In this document: positions 4,925-32,000 of the stretch, piece by piece | How positions within the stretch are numbered: position 1 is the first letter of the stretch | Layout: every line of letters begins with the position of its first letter | Source: Bacteroides acidifaciens | Lineage (GTDB): Bacteria > Bacteroidota > Bacteroidia > Bacteroidales > Bacteroidaceae | DNA length: 32,000 nt | Direction of reading: 5' to 3' | Assembly (NCBI RefSeq): GCF_024623065.1 | Contig: NZ_JANJZR010000025.1 | Coordinates: 8,028-40,027, forward strand | Position numbers and translations under genes: made by a program | The notes under the pieces: model-generated | Told to the model about the DNA's origin: nothing | What the model saw: only the letters and a program-made list of their open reading frames with translations | Database searches by the model: none

Positions 4925-4939
4925 TAAAAACGAAATCGT

Positions 4940-5854
4940 ATGAAGAAACATATATTAATAGGTTGCACTTTGATGGGAATATTTTCCCTATTGACGAGTT
5001 GTGAGAAAGAACTAATGGGATACGAAGGAAAAGATTGCCTTTATTTTGATGTACGTAGGGGGGCTACCCATATTCTTCCTTCTTTGTGGGGGCATCAGTT
5101 TTATACGGATATCTCTTTCGGAACAATCGTAGAGGATGACGTTGAACTGTCGTTGAAAGTGATGGCTTCGGGCACGCTGAAGGAGTATGACCGTTCTTTC
5201 CGGTTGTCTGTAAACAATGACAGTACGACGGCTATCAGTGGAGTCGACTTCACAGGACTGCAAGATGAGTATATAATTAAGGCAGGAGAGGCAAGCACGG
5301 AAGTGAAGTTTACAGTACATCGCTCTGAACAGATGAACGAGGATACCTTGCAGTTGCAATTGCAGTTGCTTCCCAACGAACATTTCGATTTGAGATATGA
5401 GAATTATGGAGATTATCCCGGTGTCTACAGCCCGACGGACAATGTGGCTTTTTCGGGCAATCATGATGCGTCTATTCATAATTTATTCTTTTATGATGTG
5501 CTCTCCATGCCTCGTGGTGCAGACGGGCTGACCTCTTCGGGCGGATGGTACGGACAGGATAAAGGTGGAACGGGAACCGGGCTTTTCGGTAACTTCTCGG
5601 CAAAGAAATTCCGTCTGATTATGGAACTGACAAATACGACAGTGGCAGACTACGCTGACAAAACGGTAATGCCTATGCCAAGAGCCGAAGCCATCAGTCA
5701 GACTGTAGCTGCGTACTTGCTGGAGATGGCAGAGTCGCGTGAAACAGTAGTGCTAGACGAAGACGGAACAATGATGTTTGTTAGCAATGTGACAACTTTA
5801 GGGGGTAGTAAAGGCTGGGCGCCTTTTACGAAACCGGAAGATTATTTTAAATAA
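4940..5854 (+). CDS. Surface lipoprotein, DUF4843-like (family assigned from memory of similar loci)
   Basis: 304-aa ORF with lipobox (LLTSC), 15 nt after the SusD-like gene. Third position in SusC/SusD/DUF4843/PKD-like type loci. Confidence 0.7.
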   Translation: MKKHILIGCTLMGIFSLLTSCEKELMGYEGKDCLYFDVRRGATHILPSLWGHQFYTDISFGTIVEDDVELSLKVMASGTLKEYDRSFRLSVNNDSTTAISGVDFTGLQDEYIIKAGEASTEVKFTVHRSEQMNEDTLQLQLQLLPNEHFDLRYENYGDYPGVYSPTDNVAFSGNHDASIHNLFFYDVLSMPRGADGLTSSGGWYGQDKGGTGTGLFGNFSAKKFRLIMELTNTTVADYADKTVMPMPRAEAISQTVAAYLLEMAESRETVVLDEDGTMMFVSNVTTLGGSKGWAPFTKPEDYFK

Positions 5855-5863
5855 ACGAAAATT

Positions 5864-7459
5864 ATGATGGCAATGAGAAAAATACAGATACTGTGCGTTG
5901 GGCTTGCAGCTTTGTGGTTGGCTTCATGTACGGACGACAAGGGAAATGATTCGCTTTCTCCGATTAATGAGTTGGAAATAAGCGGTATTGAGGATGAATA
6001 TTATAACGTCGGTTATAAGGAGACATTGGTTATTCCGGTCACATTGAAAGGGTTACTGTCGGGCAGCGACGAGAATCAGTTCGATTATCAGTGGTATCTT
6101 TGCAACAAGGAAGTGACGGAAAATGCGCATAAGCATACAGTGATTAGCACAGAAAAGGATTTGGAGTATCCGTTGGATATTCCTTCCGGAAACTACCGTC
6201 TCTATTTCCGTGCTACGGACAAGGAAACCGGTATGCAATGGGAGAAGGTGACTTCGCTGACTGTGTTGAGTCCTTTTGTCCGCGGTTTCTATTTGTGGGG
6301 AGATAAAGAAGACGGTACGTGTGGTATGGACTTTGTAAGTATGATTGAAGGACGTGACACTACGATGATGGCAGATTTGTTTGATAACACTGTGGGATTG
6401 AAGAAAGCCGGAAACATCGTTTTCACAGGTACGTATGTTGCTACTCCTCATGTAGTCAACTTATGGGCGACGGCGGAAAACGGGGCGTACTCTTTGGAAC
6501 ATTCGTCTTCGTTGGAGAAGTTCGGAGTATTGGAAAATATATCGCTGGACAAAATGGTATTCCCCACTCTTGAGGTGACGCGTCCGTTGAATTTTGTCGA
6601 TATCGTTCCTCATCCTTATGGTTCGAGCAATATGAACCGGGCACGTAGCTGGCGGGTGTTGCTTACCGAAAGAGATGCTTTCTTTTGCGGCTCGCTACTC
6701 TCTTCCGAAGCATACGGCAATCCGATGAACCGATATGATGCGAATACTTCTGTGCTGTACAAGCCTTCTCCTTATGTGTTTTATCAGGACAACTCGACCT
6801 ATTTGCAGGCTGTGGCTTTTTTTGACGAAACCAATCATTGTTTTACGGTTCAGAATGGGGCAAGTTATGCCGTTACCCATACTGTGAAATGCACTGATTC
6901 CGAATCGCCTTTCTGGTTCGACCAAAATAAATACACCCCAGTCCGTGATTTGGTGTATGGCGAAAACGGATTTAACGGGGGATACTCGTATGCGTTGATG
7001 AACGATGCCAACGGCGACTATTACATCTATAAATTCAAAGTAACCAGATATGGAGCAGCAGGAGTTACCAAGTCACTTGCACGTACGGTCGACAAAGCTG
7101 TGGCTACGGATTTTGATAAAGCCGGCCATTATACCTTCTTCTCCGTGCAACCTGTGATTCTTTATGCGGTAGGAGCCGATTTGTGGGCTTACGATTATGT
7201 GCGCAACATCGCCAAGAAAGTGGCTACGATGGATGGAGAAATCACCTATCTGGCTATGGATGCCCATTCCAGCAATACTCCGACCGATTTTATCGTAGCT
7301 ACCTATAGCGAATCTCAAAAAGGTACGGTTTATAAATATACCATTAAAGACGACCCGAACGACATTGTTGTGGAACCGCACACTTACCATACGGAAAGTT
7401 ATCCGTGGAAAACGAATCTGAAAGTAGCGAAGGTAGAATACCGTAATTCAAGTTTATAA
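5864..7459 (+). CDS. PKD-like family surface lipoprotein (putative)
   Basis: 531-aa ORF with lipobox (WLASC), 9 nt after the previous gene. Beta-rich composition. Position and size match the lipoprotein that usually follows DUF4843 genes. Confidence 0.7.
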   Translation: MMAMRKIQILCVGLAALWLASCTDDKGNDSLSPINELEISGIEDEYYNVGYKETLVIPVTLKGLLSGSDENQFDYQWYLCNKEVTENAHKHTVISTEKDLEYPLDIPSGNYRLYFRATDKETGMQWEKVTSLTVLSPFVRGFYLWGDKEDGTCGMDFVSMIEGRDTTMMADLFDNTVGLKKAGNIVFTGTYVATPHVVNLWATAENGAYSLEHSSSLEKFGVLENISLDKMVFPTLEVTRPLNFVDIVPHPYGSSNMNRARSWRVLLTERDAFFCGSLLSSEAYGNPMNRYDANTSVLYKPSPYVFYQDNSTYLQAVAFFDETNHCFTVQNGASYAVTHTVKCTDSESPFWFDQNKYTPVRDLVYGENGFNGGYSYALMNDANGDYYIYKFKVTRYGAAGVTKSLARTVDKAVATDFDKAGHYTFFSVQPVILYAVGADLWAYDYVRNIAKKVATMDGEITYLAMDAHSSNTPTDFIVATYSESQKGTVYKYTIKDDPNDIVVEPHTYHTESYPWKTNLKVAKVEYRNSSL

Positions 7460-17902: not shown

Positions 17903-19024
17903 TTAAAGTGCTTTCTTGAACCGTGCGAGGAACTCGTCTGCTTCTTCCATGCTGAGGCAGAGGGGCGGCAGAAGACGCAGTACGTTCGTGCCGCTTGCTC
18001 CCGTGAAGACGTGTTCGTCATAGATGAGACGGCTGCGCAATTCCTTGATGGGTTCTTCGAATTCGAGTCCAATCATAAGCCCGCGTCCGCGCACTTCTTT
18101 GATTTGCGGGAATTTCTTCAACTTTTCCAGCAAGTAGTTGCCCACTTTCGCTGCGTTTTCTACCAGGTTTTCCTGTTCGATAACGTCCATTACGGCGAGG
18201 GCTGCCGAGCATGCCAGATGGTTTCCGCCGAAAGTGGTTCCTAGCTGTCCGTACACAGGCTTGAACATCGGACTGATAAGAACGCCCGCCATCGGGAAAC
18301 CGTTGCCGATGCCTTTGGCTACGGTGATAATGTCCGGTCTGATGTCATTGTACTGATGAGCGAAGAATTTGCCGCTACGTCCGTATCCGCTCTGAATCTC
18401 GTCGAGAATCAGGATCGTTCCTGTTTCGCTGCAAGCTTTGCGGAGCTCCTGCATAAATTCGGTGCCCGGTATCTTGATACCGCCTACCCCTTGTATTCCT
18501 TCAATGATAACGGCGCATGTGTCTCCCTTAGACAGTTCCTGTTTCATCGCTTCCACGTCGTTGAGCGGGAGATAGGTGACATGACCGTTATTGTTGATAG
18601 GGGCGATGATGGAAGGATTGTTGGTCGCTTCTACCGCCAGAGACGTCCGTCCGTGGAATGCCTTATTGAAAGAAACCACTTTGGTACGTCCGTTATAGAA
18701 GGAGGCCAGCTTCAAGGCATTCTCGTTCGCTTCGGCTCCACTGTTAATCAGGAACAGGCTGTAGTCTTCGTAGCCGGAAATCTTTCCCAGCCGTTCGGCT
18801 ACCTGTTGTTGCAGCTTGTTGATGACCGAGTTTGAGTAGAAACCAAGATTGGCTACCTGGTTGCCAATCATCTCTACATAGTGAGGGTGTGCATGTCCGA
18901 TAGAGATAACGGCATGACCTCCGTAGAGGTCCAGATATTCCGTTCCGTTCTCATCCCATACTTTGCAACCGTCGCCCTTGACAATGTTGATGTTATATAA
19001 AGGATATACGTCGAATAATTTCAT
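17903..19024 (-). CDS. argD: Class-III aminotransferase, acetyl/succinyl-ornithine aminotransferase
   Basis: 373-aa ORF. Motifs: LDLYGGHAVISIGH, LILDEIQSGYGRSGKFFA, and the PLP-lysine context ITVAKGIGNGFP. Sits in the arg operon. Confidence 0.85.
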   Translation of the reverse strand: MKLFDVYPLYNINIVKGDGCKVWDENGTEYLDLYGGHAVISIGHAHPHYVEMIGNQVANLGFYSNSVINKLQQQVAERLGKISGYEDYSLFLINSGAEANENALKLASFYNGRTKVVSFNKAFHGRTSLAVEATNNPSIIAPINNNGHVTYLPLNDVEAMKQELSKGDTCAVIIEGIQGVGGIKIPGTEFMQELRKACSETGTILILDEIQSGYGRSGKFFAHQYNDIRPDIITVAKGIGNGFPMAGVLISPMFKPVYGQLGTTFGGNHLACSAALAVMDVIEQENLVENAAKVGNYLLEKLKKFPQIKEVRGRGLMIGLEFEEPIKELRSRLIYDEHVFTGASGTNVLRLLPPLCLSMEEADEFLARFKKAL

Positions 19025-19036
19025 AATTCTTTGTTT

Positions 19037-20005
19037 TTAAAAGGCTGAAGGCTTCAGCCGCAGTCCCACCGTTTCTTCCAGATTGAACATCAGGTTCATG
19101 TTATGAACCGCCTGTCCGCTGGCGCCTTTCAGCAAGTTGTCGATACAGGAGACAATCAATAGCTTCTCACCGTGTTTCTCCAGATGTATCAGGCACTTGT
19201 TGGTGTTGACTACTTGTTTGAGGTCGATATTCTTCTCTACGATGTGTACAAAGGAGTCTTTTGCATAATATTCCTCATACATGCGGACGATTTCTTCCAG
19301 CGCTACTTTGGTTCTGACTACCATCGTGGCAAAGATACCGCGGGCGAAATCGCCACGGTATGGGATGAAGTCTATCTCCGCATCGAAGCTGTTTTGCAGC
19401 TGTTTCAGCGATTGCTTGATTTCCGGCACGTGCTGGTGCTCGAATGCTTTGTACACACTCATGTTGTTGTTTCTCCAACTGAAATGACTGGTGGCACCCG
19501 GTTTCACTCCGGCTCCCGTGCTTCCTGTGATGGCGTTTACCATTACATCGTCCGTCAGCATCAGGTTCTTGGCAAGCGGGAGCAGACCGAGCTGGATGCA
19601 GGTGGCAAAACAGCCGGGGTTGGCTACGTGCTTTGCCGTACAGGTGGCGCGGCGGTTCAGTTCCGGCAGGCCGTAGATGAAGTCGTGGTCGTCACTCTTG
19701 ATGCGGTAGTCCATGGAGAGGTCGATAATCTTCAGCTCTTCCGGTATGTGGTGGCTTTCCATGAATTTCTTCGTATCGCCGTGGGCGGTGCAGAAAAAGA
19801 GGACGTCGATTTCGTCCAGAGGCAACTGGTCGGTGAATCTCAAGTCTGTTTCTCCGTACAAGCCTTCGTGTACGTCGGTGATTCTGTTTCCGGCATTACT
19901 GCTGCTGTTGATAAATACGATTTCAGTCTCCGGATGGTTGAGCAGCAGACGGATTAGTTCGCCTGCCGTATATCCTGCGCCGCCGATGATTCCTGCTTTA
20001 ATCAT
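19037..20005 (-). CDS. argC: N-acyl-gamma-glutamyl-phosphate reductase
   Basis: 322-aa ORF with MIKAGIIGGAGYTAGELIRLL, the catalytic Cys context ANPGCFATC, and C-terminal DNLLKGASGQAVHNMN. ATGA overlap with argG. Confidence 0.9.
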   Translation of the reverse strand: MIKAGIIGGAGYTAGELIRLLLNHPETEIVFINSSSNAGNRITDVHEGLYGETDLRFTDQLPLDEIDVLFFCTAHGDTKKFMESHHIPEELKIIDLSMDYRIKSDDHDFIYGLPELNRRATCTAKHVANPGCFATCIQLGLLPLAKNLMLTDDVMVNAITGSTGAGVKPGATSHFSWRNNNMSVYKAFEHQHVPEIKQSLKQLQNSFDAEIDFIPYRGDFARGIFATMVVRTKVALEEIVRMYEEYYAKDSFVHIVEKNIDLKQVVNTNKCLIHLEKHGEKLLIVSCIDNLLKGASGQAVHNMNLMFNLEETVGLRLKPSAF

Positions 20006-21210
20006 ATCTCTTCGTCTTTGTGGTTGTTATAGTAAACGCGTAGCGGGGTAGAGGTCACTTTGATAAATCCTTTGGCGTCTTCGGCCGTCCATCCTTTCTG
20101 CATTTCGCCGTATTCTCCGAATTTGGTCTTCACGAGGTCGTCTTCCGATTCCACGCCTACGGTAGAGAAGGAGAGCGGGCGGAGCTCGAGGATAGCCGTA
20201 CCGTTCACGTTGCGCTGGCTTTCCTGCAACATGGCTTCGATGTCGCGCATCACCGGTTCGAGGTATTGGCTTTCGTGGAGGAACATACCGTACCAGTTGG
20301 CCACCTGGTCTTTCCAGTATTGCTGCCATTTGCTCAGTGTATATTTCTCGAGGAAGCGATGGGCGCCGATAATCAGCATCGGGGCGGCTGCTTCGAATCC
20401 TACACGGCCTTTGATGCCGATAATGGTGTCCCCCACATGCATGTCACGGCCGATGCCGTAGGCGGCACCGATTTCTTCCACTTTCTGGATGGCTTTAATC
20501 GGGTCGTCAAACTTCTCGTCGTTGACGGCTTTCAGTTCGCCTTTTTCGAAGGTGAGGCGGAGCTGTTCGCTGCCTTCTTTTTCGACGTGTTTGAGGTAGG
20601 CGGTTTCGGGCAGTCCTTGTGCGGAGTCGAGGATTTCGCCGCCGCAGATGGACGTCCCCCACAGACCTACGTTGTACGAGTATTTCAGTTTGGTGAAATC
20701 CGCGCTGAAACCATGCTTGTTCAGATAGTCTATTTCTTCCTGGCGGCTCAATGCCATATCACGGGTCAGCGTGATGATTTCTACATTCGGAGCCAACACA
20801 AGGAAAGTCATGTCGAAACGGATTTGGTCGTTACCTGCTCCGGTAGAACCGTGGGCAATGGCGTCTGCGCCGATTTCGTTCGCATAACGTGCGATAGCCA
20901 GTGCCTGGAAGATACGTTCGGAACTGACCGAAATCGGATAAGTACCGTTGCGCAGCACATTTCCGAAAACCATATATTTCAAGCTTTTCTCGTAGTATTC
21001 CCGGGTAACGTCGAGTGTAACGTATTTTACTGCTCCCAGTTTGTAGGCGTTCTCTTCATTTGTTTTCAGTTGTTCTTCACTGAAACCGCCTGTATTGGCA
21101 CAAGCTGCATATACTTCGTAACCTTTTTCTTTGGCGAGGTACATGACGGTGAACGATGTATCCAGTCCGCCGCTGAATGCCACCACTACTTTTTTCTTCT
21201 TTTCTTCCAT
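20002..21210 (-). CDS. argG: Argininosuccinate synthase
   Basis: 402-aa ORF with the N-terminal ATP-PPase motif VVVAFSGGLDTS and the motif AHGSTGAGNDQIRF. Confidence 0.92.
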   Translation of the reverse strand: MEEKKKKVVVAFSGGLDTSFTVMYLAKEKGYEVYAACANTGGFSEEQLKTNEENAYKLGAVKYVTLDVTREYYEKSLKYMVFGNVLRNGTYPISVSSERIFQALAIARYANEIGADAIAHGSTGAGNDQIRFDMTFLVLAPNVEIITLTRDMALSRQEEIDYLNKHGFSADFTKLKYSYNVGLWGTSICGGEILDSAQGLPETAYLKHVEKEGSEQLRLTFEKGELKAVNDEKFDDPIKAIQKVEEIGAAYGIGRDMHVGDTIIGIKGRVGFEAAAPMLIIGAHRFLEKYTLSKWQQYWKDQVANWYGMFLHESQYLEPVMRDIEAMLQESQRNVNGTAILELRPLSFSTVGVESEDDLVKTKFGEYGEMQKGWTAEDAKGFIKVTSTPLRVYYNNHKDEEI

Positions 21211-21225
21211 AGTGCTGTATATTTT

Positions 21226-21804
21226 TTAAATGTTATTTCTTTCTTGTTCTTTTTTAATGTTCCGCGGTTCTGTCGGGTCGTACAGCATGGCTGTGCAGAT
21301 ACAGAACTTACGGTTCTTGGCAACCAGAATATCATGGTTGATGCATCCTTCGCACCCTTTCCAGAAGGCTTCGTCGTCCGTCAGTTCGTTGAAGGTGACG
21401 GGTACGTATCCCAGTTCCGTATTCATCTTCATCACGGCTGCTCCGGAGGTGAGGCTGAATATTTTCGCTTTCGGCCATCGGAGCCGTGCCAGTTGGAAAG
21501 AAGCCTGTTTGATGCGTTTTGCCAGTCCCAATCCGCGGAAGTCGGGATGAACAATCAGGCCGGAAGTGGCTACATATTGCTTGTTTCCCCATGATTCGAT
21601 ATAGGTGAATCCGGCAAACGTGTCGCCGCAAAGGGCGATGATTGCTTTGCCTTCTTTCATCTTTGTCGCTACGTATTCGTGTGTACGTTCTGCGATTCCT
21701 GTTCCTCGTACGGCGGCAGCATTTCTGATAGTTTCCAAAATAGTGTCAACGTAAACCTCATGCGAGGCGTCGGCTACCATAACATCTATTTGTTGAGTGT
21801 CCAT
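21226..21804 (-). CDS. GNAT-family N-acyltransferase in the arginine operon
   Basis: The track ORF starts at 21900 and would overlap argR. The ATG at 21804 (MDTQQIDV...) avoids the overlap. GNAT core: LIVHPDFRGLGLAKRI. Confidence 0.7.
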   Translation of the reverse strand: MDTQQIDVMVADASHEVYVDTILETIRNAAAVRGTGIAERTHEYVATKMKEGKAIIALCGDTFAGFTYIESWGNKQYVATSGLIVHPDFRGLGLAKRIKQASFQLARLRWPKAKIFSLTSGAAVMKMNTELGYVPVTFNELTDDEAFWKGCEGCINHDILVAKNRKFCICTAMLYDPTEPRNIKKEQERNNI

Positions 21805-21835
21805 TTCTTTATGTATAATATAGGTATAATTATAA

Positions 21836-22309
21836 TTATTCGATATTTGGGATGATGAGTGACAAAAGCTGGCGTATCTTGCTTGCGGCAACTCCTTCAC
21901 GAAGCACTAACATTATCGTATCGTCTCCGGCAATGGTTCCGAGAATTTCGGTGAACTCATTGTTGTCGATGTCATAAGCCATGCTGCTGGCATAACCGGG
22001 ACGGGTACGGATAACAGCTATGTTACCGGAGAACTGCAAAGAGATAAATCCGTTATTGCGTAACATGTCGCCGGCACTTTGGTCGGTAGAACGTTTATAC
22101 ATAATGTTATTCGGCAGTACATATACATACTTTCCGTTCATACTGGCAGCCTTGGCTACTTTCAGTTGTTTCAAGTCTCGTGAGAGGGTGGCCTGCGTCA
22201 GTTCGAAGCCTTCGCGGTTCAGCTCTTGCAGTAGTTCTTCCTGCGAGCCTACCTCTTTGCTTGAGATAATCATTTTGATGGCGTCTAACCGATTTGCTTT
22301 CTTCTTCAT
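21836..22309 (-). CDS. argR: Arginine repressor
   Basis: 157-aa ORF. N-terminal winged-helix (QEELLQELNREGFELTQATLSRDLKQLKV) and C-terminal oligomerisation/arginine-binding region (GTIAGDDTIMLV). First gene of the arg operon. Confidence 0.88.
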   Translation of the reverse strand: MKKKANRLDAIKMIISSKEVGSQEELLQELNREGFELTQATLSRDLKQLKVAKAASMNGKYVYVLPNNIMYKRSTDQSAGDMLRNNGFISLQFSGNIAVIRTRPGYASSMAYDIDNNEFTEILGTIAGDDTIMLVLREGVAASKIRQLLSLIIPNIE

Positions 22310-22469: not shown

Positions 22470-23643
22470 TTAGTCTATAGGCAAGCTGTTAACAAAATAT
22501 TGTTCGCCATCTCTCAAGAAAAATACCTCTTCCTCTTTTCCCCGGGTTTCATTATGAAGGAAAAGTAGTGCGTTCCGGGGAACATCTTTGTATTGTAAAT
22601 TATTGCTGTCCGGTAAAACTTTGACATGATAGGAAATGGACTATTTTTATCTCATACAGCATGAAACAGACTCGTATAGATGTCTTTTAAGGGCTTTTTG
22701 ATGCTTAATGCTACCAATTTCACATCGCCTCAAATGACAAGCCCTTTTTCGTAAAACAGGTGTAACTTATTATATTTGTAGAGAATATATGATTTTGTCG
22801 TTTTTTACCGGACAGCAATAATTGTAAATAAACACCTTTTGCCTTTTGTTTACCTAACGAAATCCACTTTTTATCTTTTCCCCAATAAAAGAGTTCATAG
22901 GTATCTCCCGGACGGATAAAATTGTCGTCGTTGCGTGGAATACATAAAATCTTATTAATTAAAACTTCTGAACCAAAGTCAAAAATAAGTTCCTGTCCTT
23001 CTTTCTTAGACAGAAAATAGGTGAGCGGGGCATAATCGAAGCAATTCGCTAGTTTAAATTCATCGTCATTAGCATTATATGGTTCGCATGCGACTATATT
23101 TACAGGTTTCACTTCTTGTCGGTCTTGATAAAAGTGTAGTTCTGCTAATTCGAGAAAAGCATTTTCCCTGACTTTGTATCGTACATAGCGGTATTTTTGT
23201 TTATTCTGCACCATCAATTCATTATAGCAAACTTTAGACGTATCACATATATGGTATAGCATTTCAGGATGGCTGAAATCAATCGTATTACTTTCCTCAA
23301 ACTTAGAATCTACAATTTTGTACATTCTATCCTTATTCCATGCAAAGAACGGGAACTTTCGGTAAATCTTAATATCTTCCGATTTGCTTCCTTTATTATC
23401 TGTTGAAAAATAATTGAACTGTTTCCCATCAAATATAAATGGATCGGTGAAAGGGATGTATTTTTTCCCCACTTTTGATAAAATGATATAGATGCAATTA
23501 TCTTCTACATAGCCGAATGACACATTATTTCCATTAAATGACAAAGGTTGATCGCCTTCGTCTATTATACGAACTGAAATTTGTGCTAATACCGATAATG
23601 TTGATAATACATTGATCATGAATTAACTGAAAAATATCTTCAT
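22470..23643 (-). pseudogene. Discoidin (F5/8 type C)-like secreted protein gene, inactivated
   Basis: The track ORF 22720-23619 is paralogous to 31202->32000 (shared motifs LELAELHF, CFD..PLTYFLSK, IFDFG, PRNDDNFIRPGD.YELFY). Its true C-terminal coding part (VPRNALLFLHNETRGKEEEVFFLRDGEQYFVNSLPID*) lies at 22470-22592, separated by a 222-bp insertion. Upstream, ATG 23643 gives MKIFFS, then an in-frame TAA (23623-23625), then FMINVLSTLSVLAQ, which is an interrupted signal peptide. Confidence 0.8.
22600..22821. mobile_element. 222-bp non-autonomous MITE-like insertion
   Basis: Perfect 19-bp terminal inverted repeats: TTATTGCTGTCCGGTAAAA (22600-22618) and its reverse complement (22803-22821). 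It is flanked by the 7-bp direct repeat TTGTAAA (22593-22599 and 22822-22828). There is no internal ORF. Removing the element and one repeat copy restores the frame ...GVYLQYKDVPRNALL..., which aligns with the paralog. Confidence 0.85.
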
Positions 23644-23953: not shown

Positions 23954-25951
23954 TTAGTATTCAAACTCTACCCCGTACCATTTATAAAATTTCGTCTTAT
24001 AAACCATATCAAGCAATAGTTGGTTTGTTATTTCTGGCTCTTTAATGACATCGGTTGAAAATATGTCTTTTTTTAAAGCTCCAAATTTTAATAACCGATA
24101 TTTCTTTTCTTCTCCCAGCAAACGCCAGGATGTTGTTAGACTTGGCAAAGCTTCTACCGCTTTTCTTAAAGCCTTTGTTGCTGATGCATAATCTCCAAAC
24201 CAATGCATTATATATCCATATCGTGCCAAATCTGATGGACTTTGTAAGTGTTGAGTAGAATATCTGTAGATTTCTTTTTTTAACTCATGATAAAATGCTG
24301 AATCATTATTTTTCCATTCCTTAACTTGCTGCATTGTTAATAAACGAGGATTATTAAAAATTGCTTTTACAAGAGGATTAATAGATTTCTTTAATAACCC
24401 TTTTTGGTAACATACATTTCCAAATGCCCAAGAGTAAAGAGAATTATTGGGATAATCGTATGCTAGGTTTTCTAAAAGGCAATATCCTTGATCCATTTTA
24501 TCTGTTTGCAAATACAACTGAGACAATAAATAAGTGAGTTGAACATCTCTCGGGCTATATTTTTGAGCTTTTTTCAAAAAAGATATTGCTTTCTCTGCAT
24601 AAATATCCTGTTTTATCTCTTGGTAGTTTTTAGCACATTCCATTCCCTGATTCACTAAATAAGGAATTCTATTTCCTGGAATATTATATCGTTGCGAGTC
24701 GAGGTTGACGAATAAGATTCCACCTCCATAAACGGTTAATAACAACCCTGGTATTAAGTATGATTTTCTATCTTTTGCCGGCTCACAAATTTCTGGTTCG
24801 GGCGCTTGTCTTTGTAGAAAAGCTAACAATATAAAAAACATAAGCCATACAAAAGGAATGTCGAACATTGTTGATTGTGCCATTTCTTTGGTCGACAATG
24901 CGATTAAAGTAGCAATGATTATCCAAGTATTTTCGTCTTTTCTACGGCTTAATGCAATTCCGATTATCTCTACTAGCAACAGTAGATAAGGTATTATTCC
25001 AATGATGCCCTTTTCAATTAGTAATTTGATAATAATGTTTGGTGCAAAAGTTGTAAAAGGAACAGTACTGTCTTGATTTAGTGATTCATCTATAACAAGG
25101 GTATAGCTTCCGTTTCCATATCCGAGAATGGGATGCTTCTCAAAAATCTCCCAAGCGGCATAAGTCGAATTTATTCTCCATTCGCTACTCCGTTGTTGTG
25201 AAACAGTGGCATTCATGCGCAGGGTAGTTTTCATTTCGGTAGGGAAAAGTATAGCGATTATAGCAATGGCTGCAAAAACGGCGAGCAGCGGTTTCCAGTG
25301 CTTGGCACTTTTAGTTGCAGCGATCCATATCACCAAGTAAATGCCTAGTGCAACATAAGCCCCTCTGGAGAAAGAGAGCAAAATCGTTACTATTGTTAGA
25401 AATATGAATATACTGGAATAGCGGCGTATAAAACAAATCCACCCTAAAAGTACTAATAGTATTTCTGCCCATACATTGGTTACATATCCTAATGGGCGGA
25501 ATAAAAAACGAAAATGATAGGTGTCTGTGAAGCCTGCCTCTAATACGGAATTGCGGAATATAATAAACGAACAGACAGTCAGTATCAGAGCTGCCCCAAT
25601 AGGTAAATAACTTCCTACCTGAAATAGATTCAGAGATTTGCCGGTAGCCAAAAGCTTCCTCACAATCAAATAAACGGTGAATCCATAGAATGAAAATATC
25701 ATGTTGTATACAGCTGGTACAGCACAACTGGCATAAAAGCATAATACTAAATCATAGGCTACTATGATACTCAACGTCCAGTCTATAAATGTCCATTGTT
25801 GGATAGGAAGCGGGCGGACAAATGCTAGAGCTACAATTGACAATAGCATTCCAATCCGGTAATGGTCTTTGAATTGGAATATCTCTATTGTCAACACTGC
25901 CAGTAGCAATATTGTAGCCACATAAAAACTGGTATTAAGCTTGTTCTCCAT
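23954..25951 (-). CDS. Polytopic Wzy_C (O-antigen ligase/polymerase-like) membrane protein with C-terminal TPR-like domain
   Basis: 665-aa ORF. About 400 aa form multi-TM helices, including the LSFSRGAYVALGIYLV segment typical of the O-antigen-ligase family. A soluble helical-repeat tail follows (…AISFLKKAQKYSPRDVQLTYLLSQLYLQTDKMDQG…ALRKAVEALP). Overlaps the upstream gene by 17 nt. Confidence 0.75.
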   Translation of the reverse strand: MENKLNTSFYVATILLLAVLTIEIFQFKDHYRIGMLLSIVALAFVRPLPIQQWTFIDWTLSIIVAYDLVLCFYASCAVPAVYNMIFSFYGFTVYLIVRKLLATGKSLNLFQVGSYLPIGAALILTVCSFIIFRNSVLEAGFTDTYHFRFLFRPLGYVTNVWAEILLVLLGWICFIRRYSSIFIFLTIVTILLSFSRGAYVALGIYLVIWIAATKSAKHWKPLLAVFAAIAIIAILFPTEMKTTLRMNATVSQQRSSEWRINSTYAAWEIFEKHPILGYGNGSYTLVIDESLNQDSTVPFTTFAPNIIIKLLIEKGIIGIIPYLLLLVEIIGIALSRRKDENTWIIIATLIALSTKEMAQSTMFDIPFVWLMFFILLAFLQRQAPEPEICEPAKDRKSYLIPGLLLTVYGGGILFVNLDSQRYNIPGNRIPYLVNQGMECAKNYQEIKQDIYAEKAISFLKKAQKYSPRDVQLTYLLSQLYLQTDKMDQGYCLLENLAYDYPNNSLYSWAFGNVCYQKGLLKKSINPLVKAIFNNPRLLTMQQVKEWKNNDSAFYHELKKEIYRYSTQHLQSPSDLARYGYIMHWFGDYASATKALRKAVEALPSLTTSWRLLGEEKKYRLLKFGALKKDIFSTDVIKEPEITNQLLLDMVYKTKFYKWYGVEFEY

Positions 25952-27137
25952 TCTTGCTATTCTGTTTTTTCAGACTACGAATCATTTTCGTAAATAGGTA
26001 TCCCAATAGTGCGAGGAACAACAGTTGTATTCCGATGTTGCGCATTAAAGCAAAAGGAGGTGTTAGGTTATTAGACAAATAGAGAATGAGTTCCTGCATC
26101 TCTCTTGGAAATGAAAGCAGAAAATTATATAGGAAACGTGGAATAATGTATATGAAATAGTATCCCATGAAGAAATTCACTATCACCGCGTATATCGCCA
26201 GTCCCCATCTCTCCGCGAGACCTATCCGCAATAAATAGGGCATTTGTTGGATGCGGCGTCTCATAATTCGATACCAGTAATATTTGATTATTTCAATAGA
26301 ACGTTTACGTAAACTTGGCACTCCTAGGAGGTCAGATACAATCCAGTAACCATCGAATTTAAAGAATGGATTGAGAGTCATCAAAAAGCCTAAATTGAGA
26401 ATTAATATCATATATCGCAGCATATCGTCACCGGTCATCCAGAAACCGACCAGTAAAACTATAAGAAAGAAACATTGGAAATAGACCCCTGCGATATTTA
26501 CCATAAATCGTTGCTTTCTATTTAATTTCCATATTTCCGTTACATCTGTATATAGGACGGGAAAATTTAAGTAGATCCCAAAACCGATACTTCCGTGTTT
26601 TACCCCACAATATTTACAAGCTGAGGCATGTCCTAATTCGTGAAAGAATGAAGATACTAACATAAATATCAGCAGTCCTGCCATACCAAAAGCATTTGCT
26701 CTGTTATTGAAAACTAATAAGTCGGGAACATTGATAAAAAAGAATATGTCCATAATTGTTGCTATAGATAGCAAGCTCCACATAAATTTCCTATTGAATA
26801 GAAAAGAAAATCTTTTTGAAAAACGCTCAACAGTGGCGGCTGTTAGAAGTTCCTTTTCGTAAAGGAATGTACATTCTTTCTCTTTGGGAATTGTAAGAAG
26901 AGGGTCAATATGCTTTTTAATGAGACTTTCTGTCTGTTCAAAGGTATATTTTCCCTCTTTCTTATTAATATAAGTTTGTATAGCTGCTTCTTGAGTCTCA
27001 TTCTGTTGTAGGTCAGTTAATAATTCTGCTAAGGGCTGGTTAACCTCAAAATATCTCCCGTTGCAAGAAAGTAGATAATGCTCCTTTTCTGTGGAAGAAG
27101 AGAACGGAGAAATGCTGATAGTGTTGTATTTATTCAT
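25935..27137 (-). CDS. M50/site-2-protease-like intramembrane zinc metalloprotease with N-terminal PqqD/RRE-like domain
   Basis: 400-aa ORF. HELGH lies in a TM segment (26628-26642) and a second S2P-like motif LNPFFKFDGYW follows. The N-terminal ~85 aa (EKEHYLLSCNGRYFEVNQPLAELLTDLQQNETQEAAIQTYINKKEGKYTFEQTESLIKKHIDPLL) are soluble and resemble PqqD-like peptide-binding domains. Starts 3 nt after the OM barrel gene. Confidence 0.75.
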   Translation of the reverse strand: MNKYNTISISPFSSSTEKEHYLLSCNGRYFEVNQPLAELLTDLQQNETQEAAIQTYINKKEGKYTFEQTESLIKKHIDPLLTIPKEKECTFLYEKELLTAATVERFSKRFSFLFNRKFMWSLLSIATIMDIFFFINVPDLLVFNNRANAFGMAGLLIFMLVSSFFHELGHASACKYCGVKHGSIGFGIYLNFPVLYTDVTEIWKLNRKQRFMVNIAGVYFQCFFLIVLLVGFWMTGDDMLRYMILILNLGFLMTLNPFFKFDGYWIVSDLLGVPSLRKRSIEIIKYYWYRIMRRRIQQMPYLLRIGLAERWGLAIYAVIVNFFMGYYFIYIIPRFLYNFLLSFPREMQELILYLSNNLTPPFALMRNIGIQLLFLALLGYLFTKMIRSLKKQNSKNGEQA

Positions 27138-27140: not shown

Positions 27141-29438
27141 TTAATAAGCTTTTAGGATGGCACTGTTAATATGTCTGTTCGTGTTATTGTCGTCTCGTGC
27201 GGTTTTCTTTCCGAAATTATGTGTATAAATCACTTTTAGAAAGCCTGTCTGTTGATATATGCGCCCTGTCACATAATTTGTGTAATTGTAAGCATCTAAT
27301 GTCACTGATTGTTTCCACTGGCGGTGTTTGGTAAAAGGGCTTTCCGCTCCTGCTTCCACCAACCAGTTTCCACAACTCCAGCGTGCCGTTAATCCGTATT
27401 TAGCCGGTTCATATTTATGGATCAAATCTGCACTAAAACTTTTCGAACTTGTTTTGCCATAAAGACTACATGATAAATCTTTCCAGTAATAGTCCATTTG
27501 AATCAATCCGGAAAGACTGCTCGATTTGTCGGAAATCCCTTTAAAGAGAGAAGTAATTGACCAATATCCGTCCATTTTTAAACGAAAATTTTCCGACACT
27601 TTCCATGTGGCGGATAGCATGCCTTCATGATGATGGGCACTTACATCACTACGAAAGGTGTTTATGAGTCTACCGTCTTTAATAAAAAACTCATCAGTAT
27701 TAACATGTTCAACTCTTTCGTAATGAAGTGCCGCATATAGATTGAGGTTTTTAAACTGGCCGCTATAGTTGAAATTGACATCTCCAAAAATAGTATTATC
27801 CAAGTTAGGATTTCCTCTTTTAATGATTAATGAATCAATTTCTTGTACAGCATTACTTAATTGGGAAATTTGAGGTTGTGTGTTGCCTAAAACTCCATTG
27901 AAAACGATTTGATGTAGGCTGGAGATTCGATAAGTTAAATTTGTTTTCAAGCGTGGTGAGATTTGGCTAATACGCTTCTCGTTATGTAAGCGATATTGCA
28001 GTGACGATAATCCGGGGGATACACTGAATGTTAGATTCTTTTTAAACATTCGATTGTATTCTGCATAAAACAAGGTTTGGCCTGTCCATAAATGCTGCCA
28101 AGATGAATTGTTTCCATCATAATGGGAAGAACTAATGGTATGATAGTGCCCTATTCGGAGAGATAAAGCATTGCGTTCTTTCCATCGTATTCCATACTTT
28201 ATATCTGCTCGAACTGTATAGATATCTTCTTTTGTATGAGTTAAAGTGGTATATTTATCTTCCAGGTAATTGTAAGAATAAGAATTATTAGCATAGGTAC
28301 CTGCCAATGACGACTCAATATACTGATTGTTTTTCAAGTTAAAATATCCATATAAATCTATAGTAGGCATATTGCCGGACTGATTAGTTGTTTTGCTCGA
28401 CTCTTTATTCATTGTGTGTCCGCCGCCATACTCAAGTAATTCCCGGCTAAAGTTGTCTGGTGCATCATTACGCACGAATGATATTTTCGCCAATAAATTA
28501 CGTTTTTTATTCTGGTTAGCTATGTTTAACTGTACATATTGGTTGTCGCTCTTAACCTTATTATCCAGTGTATTAGTTTTTCTATCTATAGCATATTTAG
28601 GAAAGATAAAATATTCGTGATTATCATTTATATCCCCCTTGTATTTGTTCATGCTATATCCCGCAAAAAGCGTATAATTCATGTTGCCATGTGACAGTTT
28701 GCTCACTATGTTATAGTCTCCATTGAGGTATCCCATAGCTTGCCGTCCATCAATTGCCACGTATCCCCCTGACTTGTACTGACGGGTAACATAGTTGATT
28801 GCAGCAACATCGTCGGCGTACCTCCCTGATGGTGTGTCGAAATACTCTACTTTCTCTATATCTCGTGGTCTTAAACTCTGCACTTCTCGATAATCAGCTT
28901 TCCTCCCATCAATATATAAAGTGGCTTCCCCACCAAATGTTTTTACTTTTCCCTTTATCCTGTCCACTTCCATTCCAGGAATCATCAAATTATATAATAA
29001 ATCATACCCTGTACCTGCTTGTTTTACCTGTTGCTTGTCAGGCAAAATGAGTAGCCTATCCTTTTGCCGGATAACAGAAGCTCCTTTTACCACCACTTCG
29101 TTCAACTCTATGTTATCTGTTTCCATTATCACTGGTGGTAGTTCGTTTTTCTTCTCTGTTGTATTGGCGTTAACTATTTGCTTTTTATATCCTATTGAGG
29201 AAAAAACTATAAAATAAGGTGAAGGGGAAACCTTTGTAAATTGATAATAGCCTAATGTGTCAGTGGTTGTACCAGTCACAAAGCTTGAATCGACACGGAA
29301 TAGTTGTACTGAAACATATGATAATGATTGGCCTTCCAAATCTGTTACTTTACCAGCAATGCTGCATTGGGCATAAAGAATTTGTGGAAATAGAAAAATG
29401 GTCAATAAATAAACAAAAAAAACGACGGTATATTTCAT
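27141..29438 (-). CDS. Outer-membrane beta-barrel family protein (TonB-dependent-receptor-like; CarboxypepD_reg domain + OMP_b-brl_3-like barrel)
   Basis: The track start at 29447 is a TTG; I prefer the ATG at 29438 (MKYTVVFFVYLLTIFLFPQILYAQ signal). N-terminal CSIAGKVTDLEGQSLSYVSVQL...GYYQF is carboxypeptidase-regulatory-like. A plug-like segment and a long beta-rich region ending in ...AILKAY follow. Confidence 0.75.
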   Translation of the reverse strand: MKYTVVFFVYLLTIFLFPQILYAQCSIAGKVTDLEGQSLSYVSVQLFRVDSSFVTGTTTDTLGYYQFTKVSPSPYFIVFSSIGYKKQIVNANTTEKKNELPPVIMETDNIELNEVVVKGASVIRQKDRLLILPDKQQVKQAGTGYDLLYNLMIPGMEVDRIKGKVKTFGGEATLYIDGRKADYREVQSLRPRDIEKVEYFDTPSGRYADDVAAINYVTRQYKSGGYVAIDGRQAMGYLNGDYNIVSKLSHGNMNYTLFAGYSMNKYKGDINDNHEYFIFPKYAIDRKTNTLDNKVKSDNQYVQLNIANQNKKRNLLAKISFVRNDAPDNFSRELLEYGGGHTMNKESSKTTNQSGNMPTIDLYGYFNLKNNQYIESSLAGTYANNSYSYNYLEDKYTTLTHTKEDIYTVRADIKYGIRWKERNALSLRIGHYHTISSSHYDGNNSSWQHLWTGQTLFYAEYNRMFKKNLTFSVSPGLSSLQYRLHNEKRISQISPRLKTNLTYRISSLHQIVFNGVLGNTQPQISQLSNAVQEIDSLIIKRGNPNLDNTIFGDVNFNYSGQFKNLNLYAALHYERVEHVNTDEFFIKDGRLINTFRSDVSAHHHEGMLSATWKVSENFRLKMDGYWSITSLFKGISDKSSSLSGLIQMDYYWKDLSCSLYGKTSSKSFSADLIHKYEPAKYGLTARWSCGNWLVEAGAESPFTKHRQWKQSVTLDAYNYTNYVTGRIYQQTGFLKVIYTHNFGKKTARDDNNTNRHINSAILKAY

Positions 29439-29478
29439 ATATCTCAATTTATTGTATCATAGGAATCAAATTAACTGT

Positions 29479-29551
29479 AAAATAGAGAATTCTCCATTGA
29501 GGAGCATTCTCTATCGTCTTGGATGAATGTATCTTTTTAAGATATATTCAT
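29479..29551 (-). terminator. Two hairpins directly downstream of the peptide gene (candidate partial terminator/attenuator)
   Basis: Hairpin A is 29523-29534 / 29540-29551 (12-bp stem, 1 mismatch). Hairpin B is 29483-29513 (TAGAGAAT-T-CTCC ... GGAG-C-ATTCTCTA), followed on the - strand by TTTT (29479-29482). Confidence 0.5.
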
Positions 29552-29561
29552 TTCCAATAGC

Positions 29562-29777
29562 CTAGCCCCAATTGGTGGATTCGGAATCACATTTCCAACA
29601 AAGGAGGTCAACATCTCCTGACGAAGCATCCATTGTTGTGACCAAGTCTAATAATCCATTAGCTAATAATGGATCAGTTTCCAAACGTTTTTCCAGTTCA
29701 TGAACGAACATCTCGTCGCACAGTTCTTCGTTAACAGGCTGAATGCCAGCCACTGCATTTTTCTTTAATTCTTTCAT
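29562..29777 (-). CDS. 71-aa acidic peptide, candidate RiPP precursor
   Basis: The ATG overlaps the rSAM stop codon (ATGA at 29774-29777). The sequence has a leader-like N-terminus (MKELKKNAVAGIQPVNEEL...HELEKRLETDPLL) and a Cys/Trp-containing C-terminus, LLCWKCDSESTNWG. Confidence 0.65.
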   Translation of the reverse strand: MKELKKNAVAGIQPVNEELCDEMFVHELEKRLETDPLLANGLLDLVTTMDASSGDVDLLCWKCDSESTNWG

Positions 29778-31174
29778 TTGATTTTTGAATTAGTGGTTAA
29801 TAATAGTGATTGTTTATATGTTGAATATGCTCTGTTTACAGACAGAGGATATACAGATTTAAATTTGAAACAAGCAGATGCCTTAAAACCATCTTTTGTA
29901 TGAACAGAACGAGCTAAACATCCTCCTCCACATAATAGTGCATATTTACAAGATTGACAATTAAGAGCATTTCCGGTATTTCTTTCAAACCAATGCTTAC
30001 GTACTTCTGTCCATTCAGGTTCTTCGTTTGTGTAATGCCCAATAACTTGGTCTGGTTTTCCGACTGTTTCAAGGCATGTAAATATATCTCCTACGGGATC
30101 TAGAAGATAGCTTCCATATTGAGCAGAACAACTAGCAGAATATAAACGGCAACGAGAACCATTTTCTAAATATGATAGATAATGTCTATAAATGCCAAAG
30201 TCTTGATAATATATTTCTCCATTGTATGTCTTTTGATGTTGCTTATTAAATGTATCCATTGATAAATAATTGATATCAACATCGCAGTTATCATTCTCAT
30301 TATATTTTCTTAATATGGAAGAGTATGTTTTGAAATGAGGATTTGATGTGAATCCTAGTTTTTTAAATAATTCATTTAGCGATTTGAAATCTTGAAAATT
30401 GTTACTATCTGTATTAACTCTTACCGATACATCAATATTTTTTCTTAATAAGATACCAATGTTATTAACTATTTTATCAAAACTGGCTCCTTCTTCATAA
30501 TGAAATCTACGAGAATTATGATTTTCTTTATCCCCATCAAGTGTAATTTGAAAGAAACTAAAATATTCCGGAGATAAGATGTTCTCAAAATAGTCAATGT
30601 CATATCCATTGCTGATTACTTTGAATGTATATCCTAATTGATGACCTTTCAGAACAATATATTCTATTACTTCTTTGTTTTGGCGCAAGAAAGGTTCACC
30701 CCCATAAAGAAGTATATTTTTATAATGTAATTCTTTTCTAGGCTCAATTTTCATCATGGTTTTATAGGCTTTATCTACCATCTCTTTTGTAAATGTCCAT
30801 TTAGACCATTGATTCCCATGATTAGATATTCCATTCTCAAAGCAATAAGAACATCTGAAGTTACAGTCATAGCTAATAATGAATCCAAATGTTTTGTACA
30901 ATTTACTTTGAGTTTTATGTAGAAGTTGTGCTAATTTCTTTACATACTCAATTTCCTCTTCTTGAGTATGTGTTGTTAGATATCCTCTTTTCTGTAAATA
31001 TGCTATAGTTTGTTCTGGTAATGAACTTGTTTTGGAAAAATCTTCTATTTCCTTCCAAATGTCTTTATCTAAAATATCAATAGCACCAGTATAGCCATGA
31101 GTTAACAGATATTTATCATCTTCAATTTCTAACTTGACTGGAATTGTGTAATATGATAATCTCAGCTTTTCCAT
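29774..31174 (-). CDS. Radical SAM / SPASM-domain peptide-modifying enzyme
   Basis: 466-aa ORF. CX3CX2C motif CNFRCSYC (30842-30865) and GGEPF. SPASM signature GDIFTC followed by CQSCKYALLCGGGC (CX2CX5CX3C, 29918-29959). An N-terminal extension of about 95 aa precedes the rSAM core, as in RRE-containing maturases. Confidence 0.88.
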   Translation of the reverse strand: MEKLRLSYYTIPVKLEIEDDKYLLTHGYTGAIDILDKDIWKEIEDFSKTSSLPEQTIAYLQKRGYLTTHTQEEEIEYVKKLAQLLHKTQSKLYKTFGFIISYDCNFRCSYCFENGISNHGNQWSKWTFTKEMVDKAYKTMMKIEPRKELHYKNILLYGGEPFLRQNKEVIEYIVLKGHQLGYTFKVISNGYDIDYFENILSPEYFSFFQITLDGDKENHNSRRFHYEEGASFDKIVNNIGILLRKNIDVSVRVNTDSNNFQDFKSLNELFKKLGFTSNPHFKTYSSILRKYNENDNCDVDINYLSMDTFNKQHQKTYNGEIYYQDFGIYRHYLSYLENGSRCRLYSASCSAQYGSYLLDPVGDIFTCLETVGKPDQVIGHYTNEEPEWTEVRKHWFERNTGNALNCQSCKYALLCGGGCLARSVHTKDGFKASACFKFKSVYPLSVNRAYSTYKQSLLLTTNSKIK

Positions 31175-31201: not shown

Positions 31202-32000
31202 TTAAATATTACAGATATACATCTGTTTATGGTTAGAAAAAAAGAATACTTGTTCTTCTTTGCCTCGTGTCCAGTCTCTTAGCATCAAAAGAGCATTATC
31301 AGGTACTTTGCATTCTATCGTATTTTTATTCGCTACTTTTCTTAATAAAGAAATCCATCCTTTTCTTTTATCAAAATAGAATAACTCATATTCATCTCCT
31401 ATGCGGATAAAGTTATCGTCATTTCGCGGTACGCAGATCGCATATGTGATATTAACCTCTTTGCCGAAATCGAAAATTATTGAATCGCCTTTGTTCTTTG
31501 ATAAAAAGTATGTAAGTGGATCATTATCAAAGCAATTTTTCAATTGCATTTCTGGGTCTTTGTTATTATATGATTCTCCTGAAATAATGTTTTGTGGTAT
31601 TAATTCTTCCCGATCATTAAAAAAATGTAACTCTGCTAATTCAAGTAAAACATCATTTCGAGCTATATATTTAAGATACCTGTTCTTTTGGTATAAGGTA
31701 TCCATAGGATATGTATTAAAGCATACATAAGGCGTGTCACATACTTCATATAATTTCTTGTTAATCCTATTCCGATGATTTCCTCCATAGAATTGTGCTT
31801 TAATAATTCGATACATTCGTTCCTGATTCCATCTAAAAAGAGGAAATTTGCGGTAAAGTGTTTCAGTCTTTATTTTGCTTAAATCTGCTTTAAGATAATG
31901 GAGTTGGCCATCAATGAAAACAAAAGGTTCAGACTCTAATTCTAACTTTTCGGATATTCCAGATAGTAGTAGATAAATGTTACGATCCTCAACTGCTCCA
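31202..32000 (-). CDS. Discoidin (F5/8 type C)-like protein, 5'-truncated by the window edge
   Basis: The track ORF begins at the Met at 31816, but the frame stays open to position 32000. The upstream translation (…AVEDRNIYLLLSGISEKLELESEPFVFIDGQLHYLKADLSKIKTETLYRKFPLFRWNQER-MYRII…) aligns with the paralog at 22470-23643. The gene ends 27 nt upstream of the rSAM gene. Confidence 0.8.
   Translation of the reverse strand, partial: GAVEDRNIYLLLSGISEKLELESEPFVFIDGQLHYLKADLSKIKTETLYRKFPLFRWNQERMYRIIKAQFYGGNHRNRINKKLYEVCDTPYVCFNTYPMDTLYQKNRYLKYIARNDVLLELAELHFFNDREELIPQNIISGESYNNKDPEMQLKNCFDNDPLTYFLSKNKGDSIIFDFGKEVNITYAICVPRNDDNFIRIGDEYELFYFDKRKGWISLLRKVANKNTIECKVPDNALLMLRDWTRGKEEQVFFFSNHKQMYICNI

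Follow-up and report, generated by a model that had tools for sequence, protein, structure and literature searches.

A radical SAM/SPASM-associated precursor peptide family of the Bacteroidales with hypervariable cysteine-rich cores and an M50-like candidate leader peptidase

The closest described counterparts of the system analysed here are the sactipeptides (subtilosin A with AlbA, thurincin H with ThnB, and ruminococcin C) and the ranthipeptides (SCIFF/thermocellin with CteB, freyrasin with PapB), peptides made on the ribosome and modified after translation (RiPPs) in which a radical S-adenosylmethionine (SAM) enzyme with a SPASM domain joins Cys sulfur to carbon. The link is to the α-carbon in sactipeptides, which are found mostly in Firmicutes and are usually exported by ATP-binding cassette (ABC) transporters, and to the β- or γ-carbon in ranthipeptides. 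Within the Bacteroidetes, the described SPASM-associated precursors (TIGR04149, the GG-Bacteroidales type, TIGR04139 and PF14406) occur with peptidase-containing ABC transporters (PCATs) and often with ATP-grasp enzymes (PMC10352776, PMC8939145). The locus considered here lies in a stretch of 32,000 nucleotides from Bacteroides acidifaciens (contig NZ_JANJZR010000025.1, positions 8,028 to 40,027; hereafter the window, to which all coordinates refer unless another locus is named) and is centred on a gene for a 71-residue peptide next to that for a radical SAM/SPASM maturase. We propose that the peptide is a RiPP precursor in which the maturase installs Cys thioether crosslinks, followed by cleavage by an M50-like protease. 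We assign this statement as a whole a probability of roughly 0.75, a figure weighted towards the precursor assignment.

The precursor gene occupies positions 29562-29777 of the minus strand, stop codon included, and its open reading frame (ORF) reads MKELKKNAVAGIQPVNEELCDEMFVHELEKRLETDPLLANGLLDLVTTMDASSGDVDLLCWKCDSESTNWG. The TGA of the maturase gene (29776-29774) and the ATG of the peptide gene (29777-29775) share the letters ATGA, the minus strand running '...AAA ATC AAATGAAAGAA...'; judged from the sequence, the peptide gene and the upstream maturase gene that it overlaps are on one transcript. The ORF and the overlap had both been called in the original prediction, which was made from the letters of this stretch, and both are found in the sequence, as is the very acidic character that it had ascribed to the peptide (isoelectric point of 4.22, 15 Asp and Glu residues against six Lys and Arg, net charge of about -9). 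Residues 22-45 (EMFVHELEKRLETDPLLANGLLDL; 29643-29714, minus strand) form a conserved leader block that is the signature of the family and presumably the motif bound by a RiPP recognition element (RRE). Residues 60-71 (CWKCDSESTNWG; 29565-29600, minus strand) form the core region, in which C60 and C63 are invariant, residue 64 is Asn or Asp and the remainder is hypervariable. The original prediction confined all potentially reactive residues to the last 12, correctly placing the segment C60-W-K-C63-D64-S-E-S-T-N-W70-G at 29565-29600 but missing a Cys at position 20 of the leader; relatives have Tyr or Phe there, and for this reason C20 appears an unlikely modification site. The exact peptide is present on at least 1000 contigs under the NCBI name 'MULTISPECIES: hypothetical protein [Bacteroidaceae]', and the assembly collection lists the maturase in 1886 blocks. 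The exact peptide, maturase, M50 and Wzy_C proteins are present in NCBI records of B. acidifaciens, with near-identical copies in B. faecium, and the three partners are named 'radical SAM/SPASM domain-containing protein', 'M50 family metallopeptidase' and 'O-antigen ligase family protein'.

A protein search with the window peptide returned 16 homologues of 49-82 residues, across which E27-L-E-x-R-L-E-T-D-P-L37, G41-L-L, L45 and C60 are invariant. The one-genome-per-species GTDB data hold at least 240 loci of the system: scanning them with the maturase alignment gave 240 related stretches, and 80 loci were kept. These come from Bacteroides, Phocaeicola, Prevotella/Segatella, Paraprevotella, Parabacteroides, Tannerella forsythia, Muribaculaceae, Rikenellaceae, Alistipes, Dysgonomonas and Elizabethkingia and, more distantly, from Ignavibacteria, Latescibacterota, Balneolaceae and others. 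A hidden Markov model (HMM) built from 17 peptides was then run on all ORFs of at least 25 residues in the maturase loci (E < 0.01). All of its 96 matches lie on the strand of the maturase gene; a match lies 3' of that gene in 66 of the 76 loci that have sequence beyond it, and tandem arrays of two to six copies are present in 16 loci. Against 1.84 billion representative proteins the peptide profile retrieved 207 clusters (50% identity), with lengths of 40-141 residues throughout. Every member shares the leader ..S-L-N-x-x-L-x-x-E-F-x-x-x-E-L-E-x-R-L-E-T-D-P-L-x-x-G-G-L-x-D-L.., after which a variable spacer leads to a hypervariable C-terminus. The absence of a double-Gly site, pointed out in the original prediction, is correct for the window peptide (A-N-G) but does not extend to the family, as most relatives carry GG inside the leader (..VGGLLDL..).

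Comparison with four relatives gives a ratio of nonsynonymous to synonymous differences (pN/pS) of 0.11-0.20 for the leader block (pN of 0.10-0.14, pS of 0.58-1.0, with synonymous sites near saturation), and the ORF must therefore be translated and under purifying selection. This selection at the protein level bears on the alternative that the ORF is an unmodified accessory (a stand-alone leader-binding protein or chaperone) or is spurious, and that another peptide is the substrate. A 42-residue ORF further downstream in the cluster could be put forward as such a substrate; however, no second conserved small ORF is found beside the maturase gene, and both enzymes already contain an RRE-like domain of their own. 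The original prediction had asked whether the frame would prove to be missing beside orthologous maturase genes or to be conserved as a folded accessory protein. The frame is instead retained within 600 nt 3' of the maturase gene in 63 of the 76 loci, and a strictly conserved N-terminus joined to a hypervariable C-terminus, often in multicopy tandem arrays, does not describe a folded accessory. We regard the accessory or spurious reading as scarcely credible. The data support the 71-codon ORF as a real, conserved precursor gene of a ribosomally made, enzyme-modified peptide, and the peptide is very probably the genuine substrate of the maturase.

The division between leader and core is sharp. 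Among the 12 closest relatives the mean fraction of the majority residue is 0.95 for residues 22-46 versus 0.56 for residues 60-71, and within one cluster at 90% identity near-identical leaders precede the differing cores CWKCDSESTNWG, CWKCDVESTNWG and CTMCDSACYGVNG. Across the family no residue class other than Cys shows universal enrichment in the cores: its share is 10% downstream of the leader anchor and 18% when counted from the first Cys, versus 0.3% in the leader. The modal number of Cys residues per core is three in both the genome and metagenome sets (range 0-10; peptides with none or one look truncated), and this odd number argues against simple disulfide pairing. A conserved leader combined with a hypervariable Cys-rich core is classically what marks a RiPP precursor, and this pattern favours chemistry at Cys over chemistry at Trp or Lys. 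The latter had been offered in the original prediction as an alternative, namely Trp-Lys or other Trp-centred C-C or C-O crosslinks of the StrB/SuiB or DarE type through W61, K62 and W70. All three residues are present in the window peptide, SuiB is a structural match of the maturase and the DynA model gives it a weak HMM score (76 bits). In the 12 closest relatives, however, W61, K62 and W70 are retained in only 25, 25 and 33% of sequences, respectively, compared with 100% for both C60 and C63. Trp accounts for 1.1% of the residues in family cores, and 113 of 160 representatives have no core Trp. Such crosslinks are therefore disfavoured, and we consider them very improbable. In the same 12 sequences residue 64 is Asn in 75% and otherwise Asp, and S67 and N69 are each kept in 67%. 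An alignment of the small ORFs beside maturase homologues, which the original prediction had proposed as a check, thus returned a conserved leader and a variable core, with CxxC(N/D) kept within the subfamily.

Two recurrent core patterns were also observed. One, made out by eye only, reads C-x(1,2)-C-[NDH]-x-x-S-[ST] and is common to the window subfamily and some Prevotella/Segatella cores. A core of the type (D/G)FCSPIC(D/E/S)(F/L)xC(L/I)(V/I/L)Y recurs in eight of our loci (L030, L033, L038, L040, L047-L049 and L051) and in peptides P0060 and P0143. It stands behind differing leaders, 'DLEERIETAPV' in Prevotellaceae and 'RLETDPLLLNGFFG' in Bacteroides, and is also present in tandem copies, which hints at a conserved, functionally constrained product amid the hypervariable cores.

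The maturase (466 residues; 29774-31174, minus strand) carries an RRE-like domain at residues 1-92 (30899-31174), the radical SAM motif CX3CX2C at C104/C108/C111 (30842-30865, minus strand) and seven SPASM cysteines from C349 to C435 (29870-30130, minus strand). All of the latter (C349, C367, C406, C409, C415, C419 and C435) are kept without exception in 68 sequences. Seven SPASM cysteines are also found in the thioether-forming enzymes CteB, Tte1186 and QhpD (PMC10352776). In NCBIfam the maturase is matched in part by models for CefB (Cys-every-fifth), TIGR04463 (Cys-rich target), PapB, FlmE/OhkG, the geopeptide and Clo7bot systems, the SCIFF thioether maturase and CcpM, most of which are enzymes with Cys-rich substrates or thioether-forming activity. 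In the PDB, the maturase sequence finds CteB alone (5WGG; E = 4.7e-11). An AlphaFold2 model computed with 68 homologues has high confidence (a mean predicted local distance difference test score, pLDDT, of 91.8 and a predicted TM-score of 0.89). Its N-terminus, with strands at residues 10-14, 21-26 and 32-36 and helices at 37-44, 54-63 and 71-91, has the topology of an RRE. The whole model aligns best in Foldseek with two RRE-bearing maturases, TigE (8VPO) and CteB (E of about 8e-16), followed by anSME, SuiB, ChlB and SkfB, and EpeE is also among the neighbours. The model establishes the predicted fold as that of an RRE-bearing SPASM peptide maturase; the fold does not fix the chemistry.

The presumed leader peptidase is an M50/site-2-protease-like membrane metalloprotease of 400 residues (25935-27137, minus strand) with an intact HELGH motif (26628-26642, minus strand) and an intact NPFFKFDG (NPxxxxDG) motif. 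It is matched in part by the HMMs of the daptide HExxH intramembrane protease (NF041824; E = 1e-24, score of 87.4 against a cut-off of 300) and of the YydH/LiaK epipeptide protease (NF058609; E = 8e-16, 58.5 against 225). The AlphaFold2 model (pLDDT of 75) contains an additional N-terminal domain at about residues 1-85 (26883-27137, minus strand), in which strands 8-12, 20-25 and 28-33 precede helices 34-45, 49-59 and 66-82 (β3-α3). In local Foldseek comparisons this domain aligns with TbiB1 (5V1V; target-normalized TM-score of 0.58, root-mean-square deviation of 3.0 Å over 78 columns) and also with ThcOx, TruD and McbB, all of which are RRE proteins. The membrane part aligns with the site-2 proteases mjS2P, SpoIVFB and RseP. 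The predicted structure is thus suggestive of an RRE-like domain joined to a site-2-protease fold. An M50-like protease accompanies the maturase in 66 loci, among them loci from distant phyla that lack genes for the barrel, for Wzy_C and for the lipoproteins; since it is kept with the maturase over such distances, the minimal conserved module comprises the maturase, the precursor and the RRE-bearing M50-like protease. A search of the full B. acidifaciens cluster found no ABC or C39 gene and no ATP-grasp enzyme. Processing by the M50-like enzyme rather than by a C39 transporter, as originally proposed, agrees with this absence, with the conserved gene order, with the intact HExxH and NPxxxxDG motifs and with the RRE-like domain, and the enzyme is probably the leader peptidase.

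In six Prevotellaceae loci (L038, at 3142-6426 of that locus, and L040, L047, L048, L049 and L051) the protease (residues 6-387) and the barrel protein (residues 433-1094) form a single ORF of about 1094 residues upstream of the maturase gene. The barrel part lacks CarboxypepD_reg and is preceded by an internal stretch resembling a signal peptide, MAAAVMILAVVTDAGAQ. The joining of an inner-membrane protease to an outer-membrane barrel is odd.

Several observations weigh against the proposed pathway. For each curated maturase model in NCBIfam the score of the enzyme is far below the trusted cut-off, and it belongs to no curated equivalog; the scores and cut-offs are 126.8 and 600 for CefB (NF038107), 111.4 and 525 for TIGR04463, 107 and 340 for PapB (NF047865), and 80.8 and 425 for SCIFF (TIGR03974). 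A thioether enzyme (CteB), a cyclopropyl enzyme (TigE) and a Lys-Trp enzyme (SuiB) all match the maturase model, and comparison of structures does not separate them. When a fixed offset from Cys to an acceptor was sought across the family, no position stood out. Neither N-terminal domain gave a PqqD or RRE match by sequence in Pfam (E ≤ 10) or in PDB profile searches, and the RRE-like assignment of both domains rests on predicted topology. An hhalign comparison of the two N-termini with each other also gave no match. The Foldseek E-values for the protease are weak (0.3-2.5, with 1-2.5 for its N-terminal domain). Finally, the transglutaminase-like lipoprotein of the cluster has a Cys-protease fold and could be an alternative or a second peptidase.

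Part of this evidence can be read as favouring a genuine substrate with a modification other than a thioether, such as epimerization of the YydG/EpeE type, C-C or C-O crosslinks, or side-chain chemistry like that of TigE, the Cys residues then serving as disulfides or metal ligands. The structural neighbours TigE, SuiB, anSME and EpeE, the resemblance of the protease to epipeptide YydH/LiaK, the position of the maturase outside the curated thioether families and the lack of a family-wide acceptor at a fixed offset from Cys would all accord with this. Against it stand the exclusive enrichment of Cys in the cores (18% versus 0.3% in the leader), the odd modal Cys count, the nearest HMM families and the sole PDB sequence match, which concern Cys-rich targets or thioethers, and the seven SPASM cysteines shared with CteB. 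On balance we judge a non-thioether modification to be unlikely and lean towards a Cys thioether, the chemistry with the most support. Computation does not distinguish a link to the α-carbon from one to the β- or γ-carbon.

In the pathway that we propose, the leader block (about residues 22-45) would dock on the RRE of the maturase. This enzyme, in which the SAM cluster would be joined by two auxiliary clusters bound to the seven SPASM cysteines as in CteB, would abstract a hydrogen atom from an acceptor residue. The sulfur of C60, of C63 or of both would then be joined to the acceptor carbon, so that CWKCDSESTNWG would contain one intramolecular thioether ring or two. The acceptors could be N/D64 for C60 (C60-x3-D, as for PapB) and S67/T68 for C63 (C63-x4-T, as for CteB). 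The RRE-bearing membrane metalloprotease would remove the leader at the cytoplasmic membrane. Handling in the envelope, whether export, uptake or attachment, would most likely fall to partners specific to Bacteroidales, namely the TonB-receptor-like barrel, the Wzy_C-TPR protein and the transglutaminase-like lipoproteins.

Judged from its sequences, the system would work like a ranthipeptide or sactipeptide pathway while failing membership in every curated family. The likeness to ranthipeptides extends over the short precursor, the conserved leader, the Cys core and the RRE-bearing radical SAM/SPASM enzyme, for which CteB is both the only PDB sequence match and a top structural match, while the best HMM neighbours include PapB and the SCIFF maturase. 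The window core even combines one C-x3-D spacing, as with PapB, and one C-x4-T spacing, as with CteB. The leader, however, belongs to a separate, uncurated family, and the maturase lies far below the PapB, SCIFF and CefB cut-offs. In contrast to freyrasin (PapA/PapB), the C60-x3-D64 motif is single and not repeated, and Asn rather than Asp is usual at position 64 in close relatives. The cluster also differs from those of ranthipeptides in having an RRE-M50 protease, a TonB-receptor-like barrel, Wzy_C-TPR and transglutaminase-like lipoproteins and no ABC/C39 exporter. With sactipeptides the system shares a Cys-rich core, a C-x2-C spacing and a radical SAM/SPASM enzyme of the kind that links Cys sulfur to carbon. 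Epipeptides (YydF/YydG/YydH; LiaK) and daptides resemble it in dedicating a membrane-embedded HExxH/M50-like protease to RiPP maturation, but the window protease scores below both cut-offs and has the extra RRE-like N-terminal domain, and the modifying enzymes and cores are unrelated.

The TIGR04149, TIGR04139 and PF14406 precursors are likewise small, lie beside SPASM maturases and come from the same phylum. Their leader motif differs from that of the window peptide, and their transporters and ATP-grasp enzymes have no counterpart in the cluster. The peptide has no HMM match to any of the three models even at E ≤ 1, so the likeness to known Lys-rich Bacteroidota leaders suggested in the original prediction was not borne out. 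No model in Pfam or NCBIfam covers the precursor family or the maturase. A paper on RiPP mining in Bacteroidales (PMC10352776) and a survey of graspetides (PMC8939145) deal with other Bacteroidetes precursor families. Neither the leader motif nor the gene set is described in the full-text literature that was searched, a scope that leaves out many subscription papers, and large surveys of radical SAM RiPPs may already list these clusters generically. A literature match to DUF3244 was rejected as a description of the system: it came from an unrelated iron-stimulon table. What emerges is an uncurated precursor family with unusual envelope partners.

The full B. acidifaciens locus, which is flanked by a rhamnose operon and an arginine operon, consists of genes for a TPR protein (636 residues), a DUF3244 protein (126 residues), a transglutaminase-domain/discoidin lipoprotein, the maturase, the precursor, a 'TonB-dependent receptor' (765 residues), the RRE-M50 protease, Wzy_C-TPR and a truncated second discoidin paralogue. 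The order maturase, peptide, CarboxypepD_reg outer-membrane protein, M50-like protease and Wzy_C/TPR is found in metagenomic contigs with divergent homologues and among the 80 genome loci, and the order of the accessory genes is strict across Bacteroides, Phocaeicola, Prevotella, Tannerella and Parabacteroides. In the outer-membrane protein (27141-29447, minus strand) a signal peptide and a CarboxypepD_reg domain are combined with a remainder that resembles a barrel; the protein is named 'TonB-dependent receptor' by the Prokaryotic Genome Annotation Pipeline (765 residues from 29438) and is a conserved cluster member in Bacteroidales. Also conserved in Bacteroidales is the membrane protein of the Wzy_C (O-antigen-ligase) family with C-terminal TPR repeats (665 residues; 23954-25951, minus strand). 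At the other end of the cluster, the C-terminal 266 residues of a conserved lipoprotein of 638-663 residues are encoded at 31202-32000 (minus strand), the gene running past the end of the window. This lipoprotein has a transglutaminase-like core motif (GGCTEESNF...LRSLGIPV...HSW) and a discoidin-like C-terminus, and a 204-residue ORF read from an internal ATG within 31202-32000 is part of it, the frame being open to the window end. In PDB sequence searches the barrel protein and the lipoprotein had no match, and Wzy_C-TPR gave generic TPR matches only.

The absence of a transporter, the strict order of the accessory genes and the protease-barrel fusion in Prevotellaceae are compatible with a further reading, in which the Bacteroidales product is not simply a free bacteriocin leaving through an ABC exporter but enters an envelope pathway absent from characterized RiPP systems. 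RRE-M50 cleavage at the inner membrane would be followed by coupling to a glycan or lipid carrier, or by outward transfer, through the invariably linked Wzy_C (O-antigen-ligase/PglL-type)-TPR protein, and the barrel and lipoproteins would serve in display, uptake or sensing. The outcome would be a thioether peptide that carries a glycan or is anchored at the surface, or else a self-signalling loop. We regard this pathway as speculative and rather doubtful.

The family is widespread in gut and oral Bacteroidales, including B. acidifaciens, a mouse-gut bacterium, Phocaeicola, Segatella copri and other Prevotella, Parabacteroides and the periodontal pathogen T. forsythia, and its precursors are still annotated as 'hypothetical protein'. 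The leader signature offers a direct handle for genome mining of hundreds of hypervariable Cys-rich cores, which are candidate molecules of antagonism or signalling in the gut. With two RRE-bearing enzymes, an outer-membrane receptor, Wzy_C-TPR and no ABC exporter, the system also provides an entry to RiPP processing and to transit across two membranes in Gram-negative anaerobes.

The 114-nt spacer 3' of the peptide stop contains two stable RNA hairpins (29481-29557, minus strand), the second of which is followed by a U-run. Its minimum free energy is -30.4 kcal/mol (z = -4.27), and none of 200 shuffled sequences was as stable. A value of z < -2 was obtained for 47% of 99 equivalent regions in relatives; recurrent structure 3' of the peptide genes is expected if the precursor transcripts are stabilized or partly terminated there. 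A GC-based consensus terminator scan did not flag the AT-rich hairpins at 29481-29557, which are a probable attenuator or transcript-stabilizing element.

At its 3' end the cluster contains a truncated copy (about 300 residues; 22720-23619, minus strand) of a 626-residue discoidin/transglutaminase-type paralogue. The full-length paralogue is present in other strains of the same 90% cluster, and the copy at 22720-23619 is therefore likely to be decaying in this strain. Beyond it, the arginine biosynthesis operon (argR, a GNAT protein, argG, argC and an argD-like aminotransferase; 17903-22309, minus strand) marks the 3' boundary.

Some loci depart from this arrangement. In Elizabethkingia (L032, 13107-15904) and Balneolaceae (L073, 13208-16041) the maturase-peptide-M50 module is followed by a CarboxypepD_reg protein of 278 residues and then by a protein of about 660 residues with the α-α toroid of squalene-hopene cyclases and prenyltransferases; the two together replace the barrel and Wzy_C-TPR. 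In Bacteroides pyogenes LC-305-2021 (L033, 11472-11649) the precursor is split over two overlapping frames, the start of the leader lying in one and RLETDPL...FCSPICTEFSCLIY in the other, an apparent frameshift or pseudogene. A maturase and peptide 100% identical to those of the B. acidifaciens cluster are present in L005 (CAQZSK010000035.1) and in HBV82587-HBV82590, metagenome-assembled genomes (MAGs) labelled 'uncultured Clostridia bacterium' and 'Lachnospiraceae bacterium'; these contigs are probably mis-binned. Finally, two separate maturase systems are present in each of a Phocaeicola MAG (L037 and L044), a Latescibacterota genome (L063 and L067) and an Ignavibacteriales MAG (L055 and L072).

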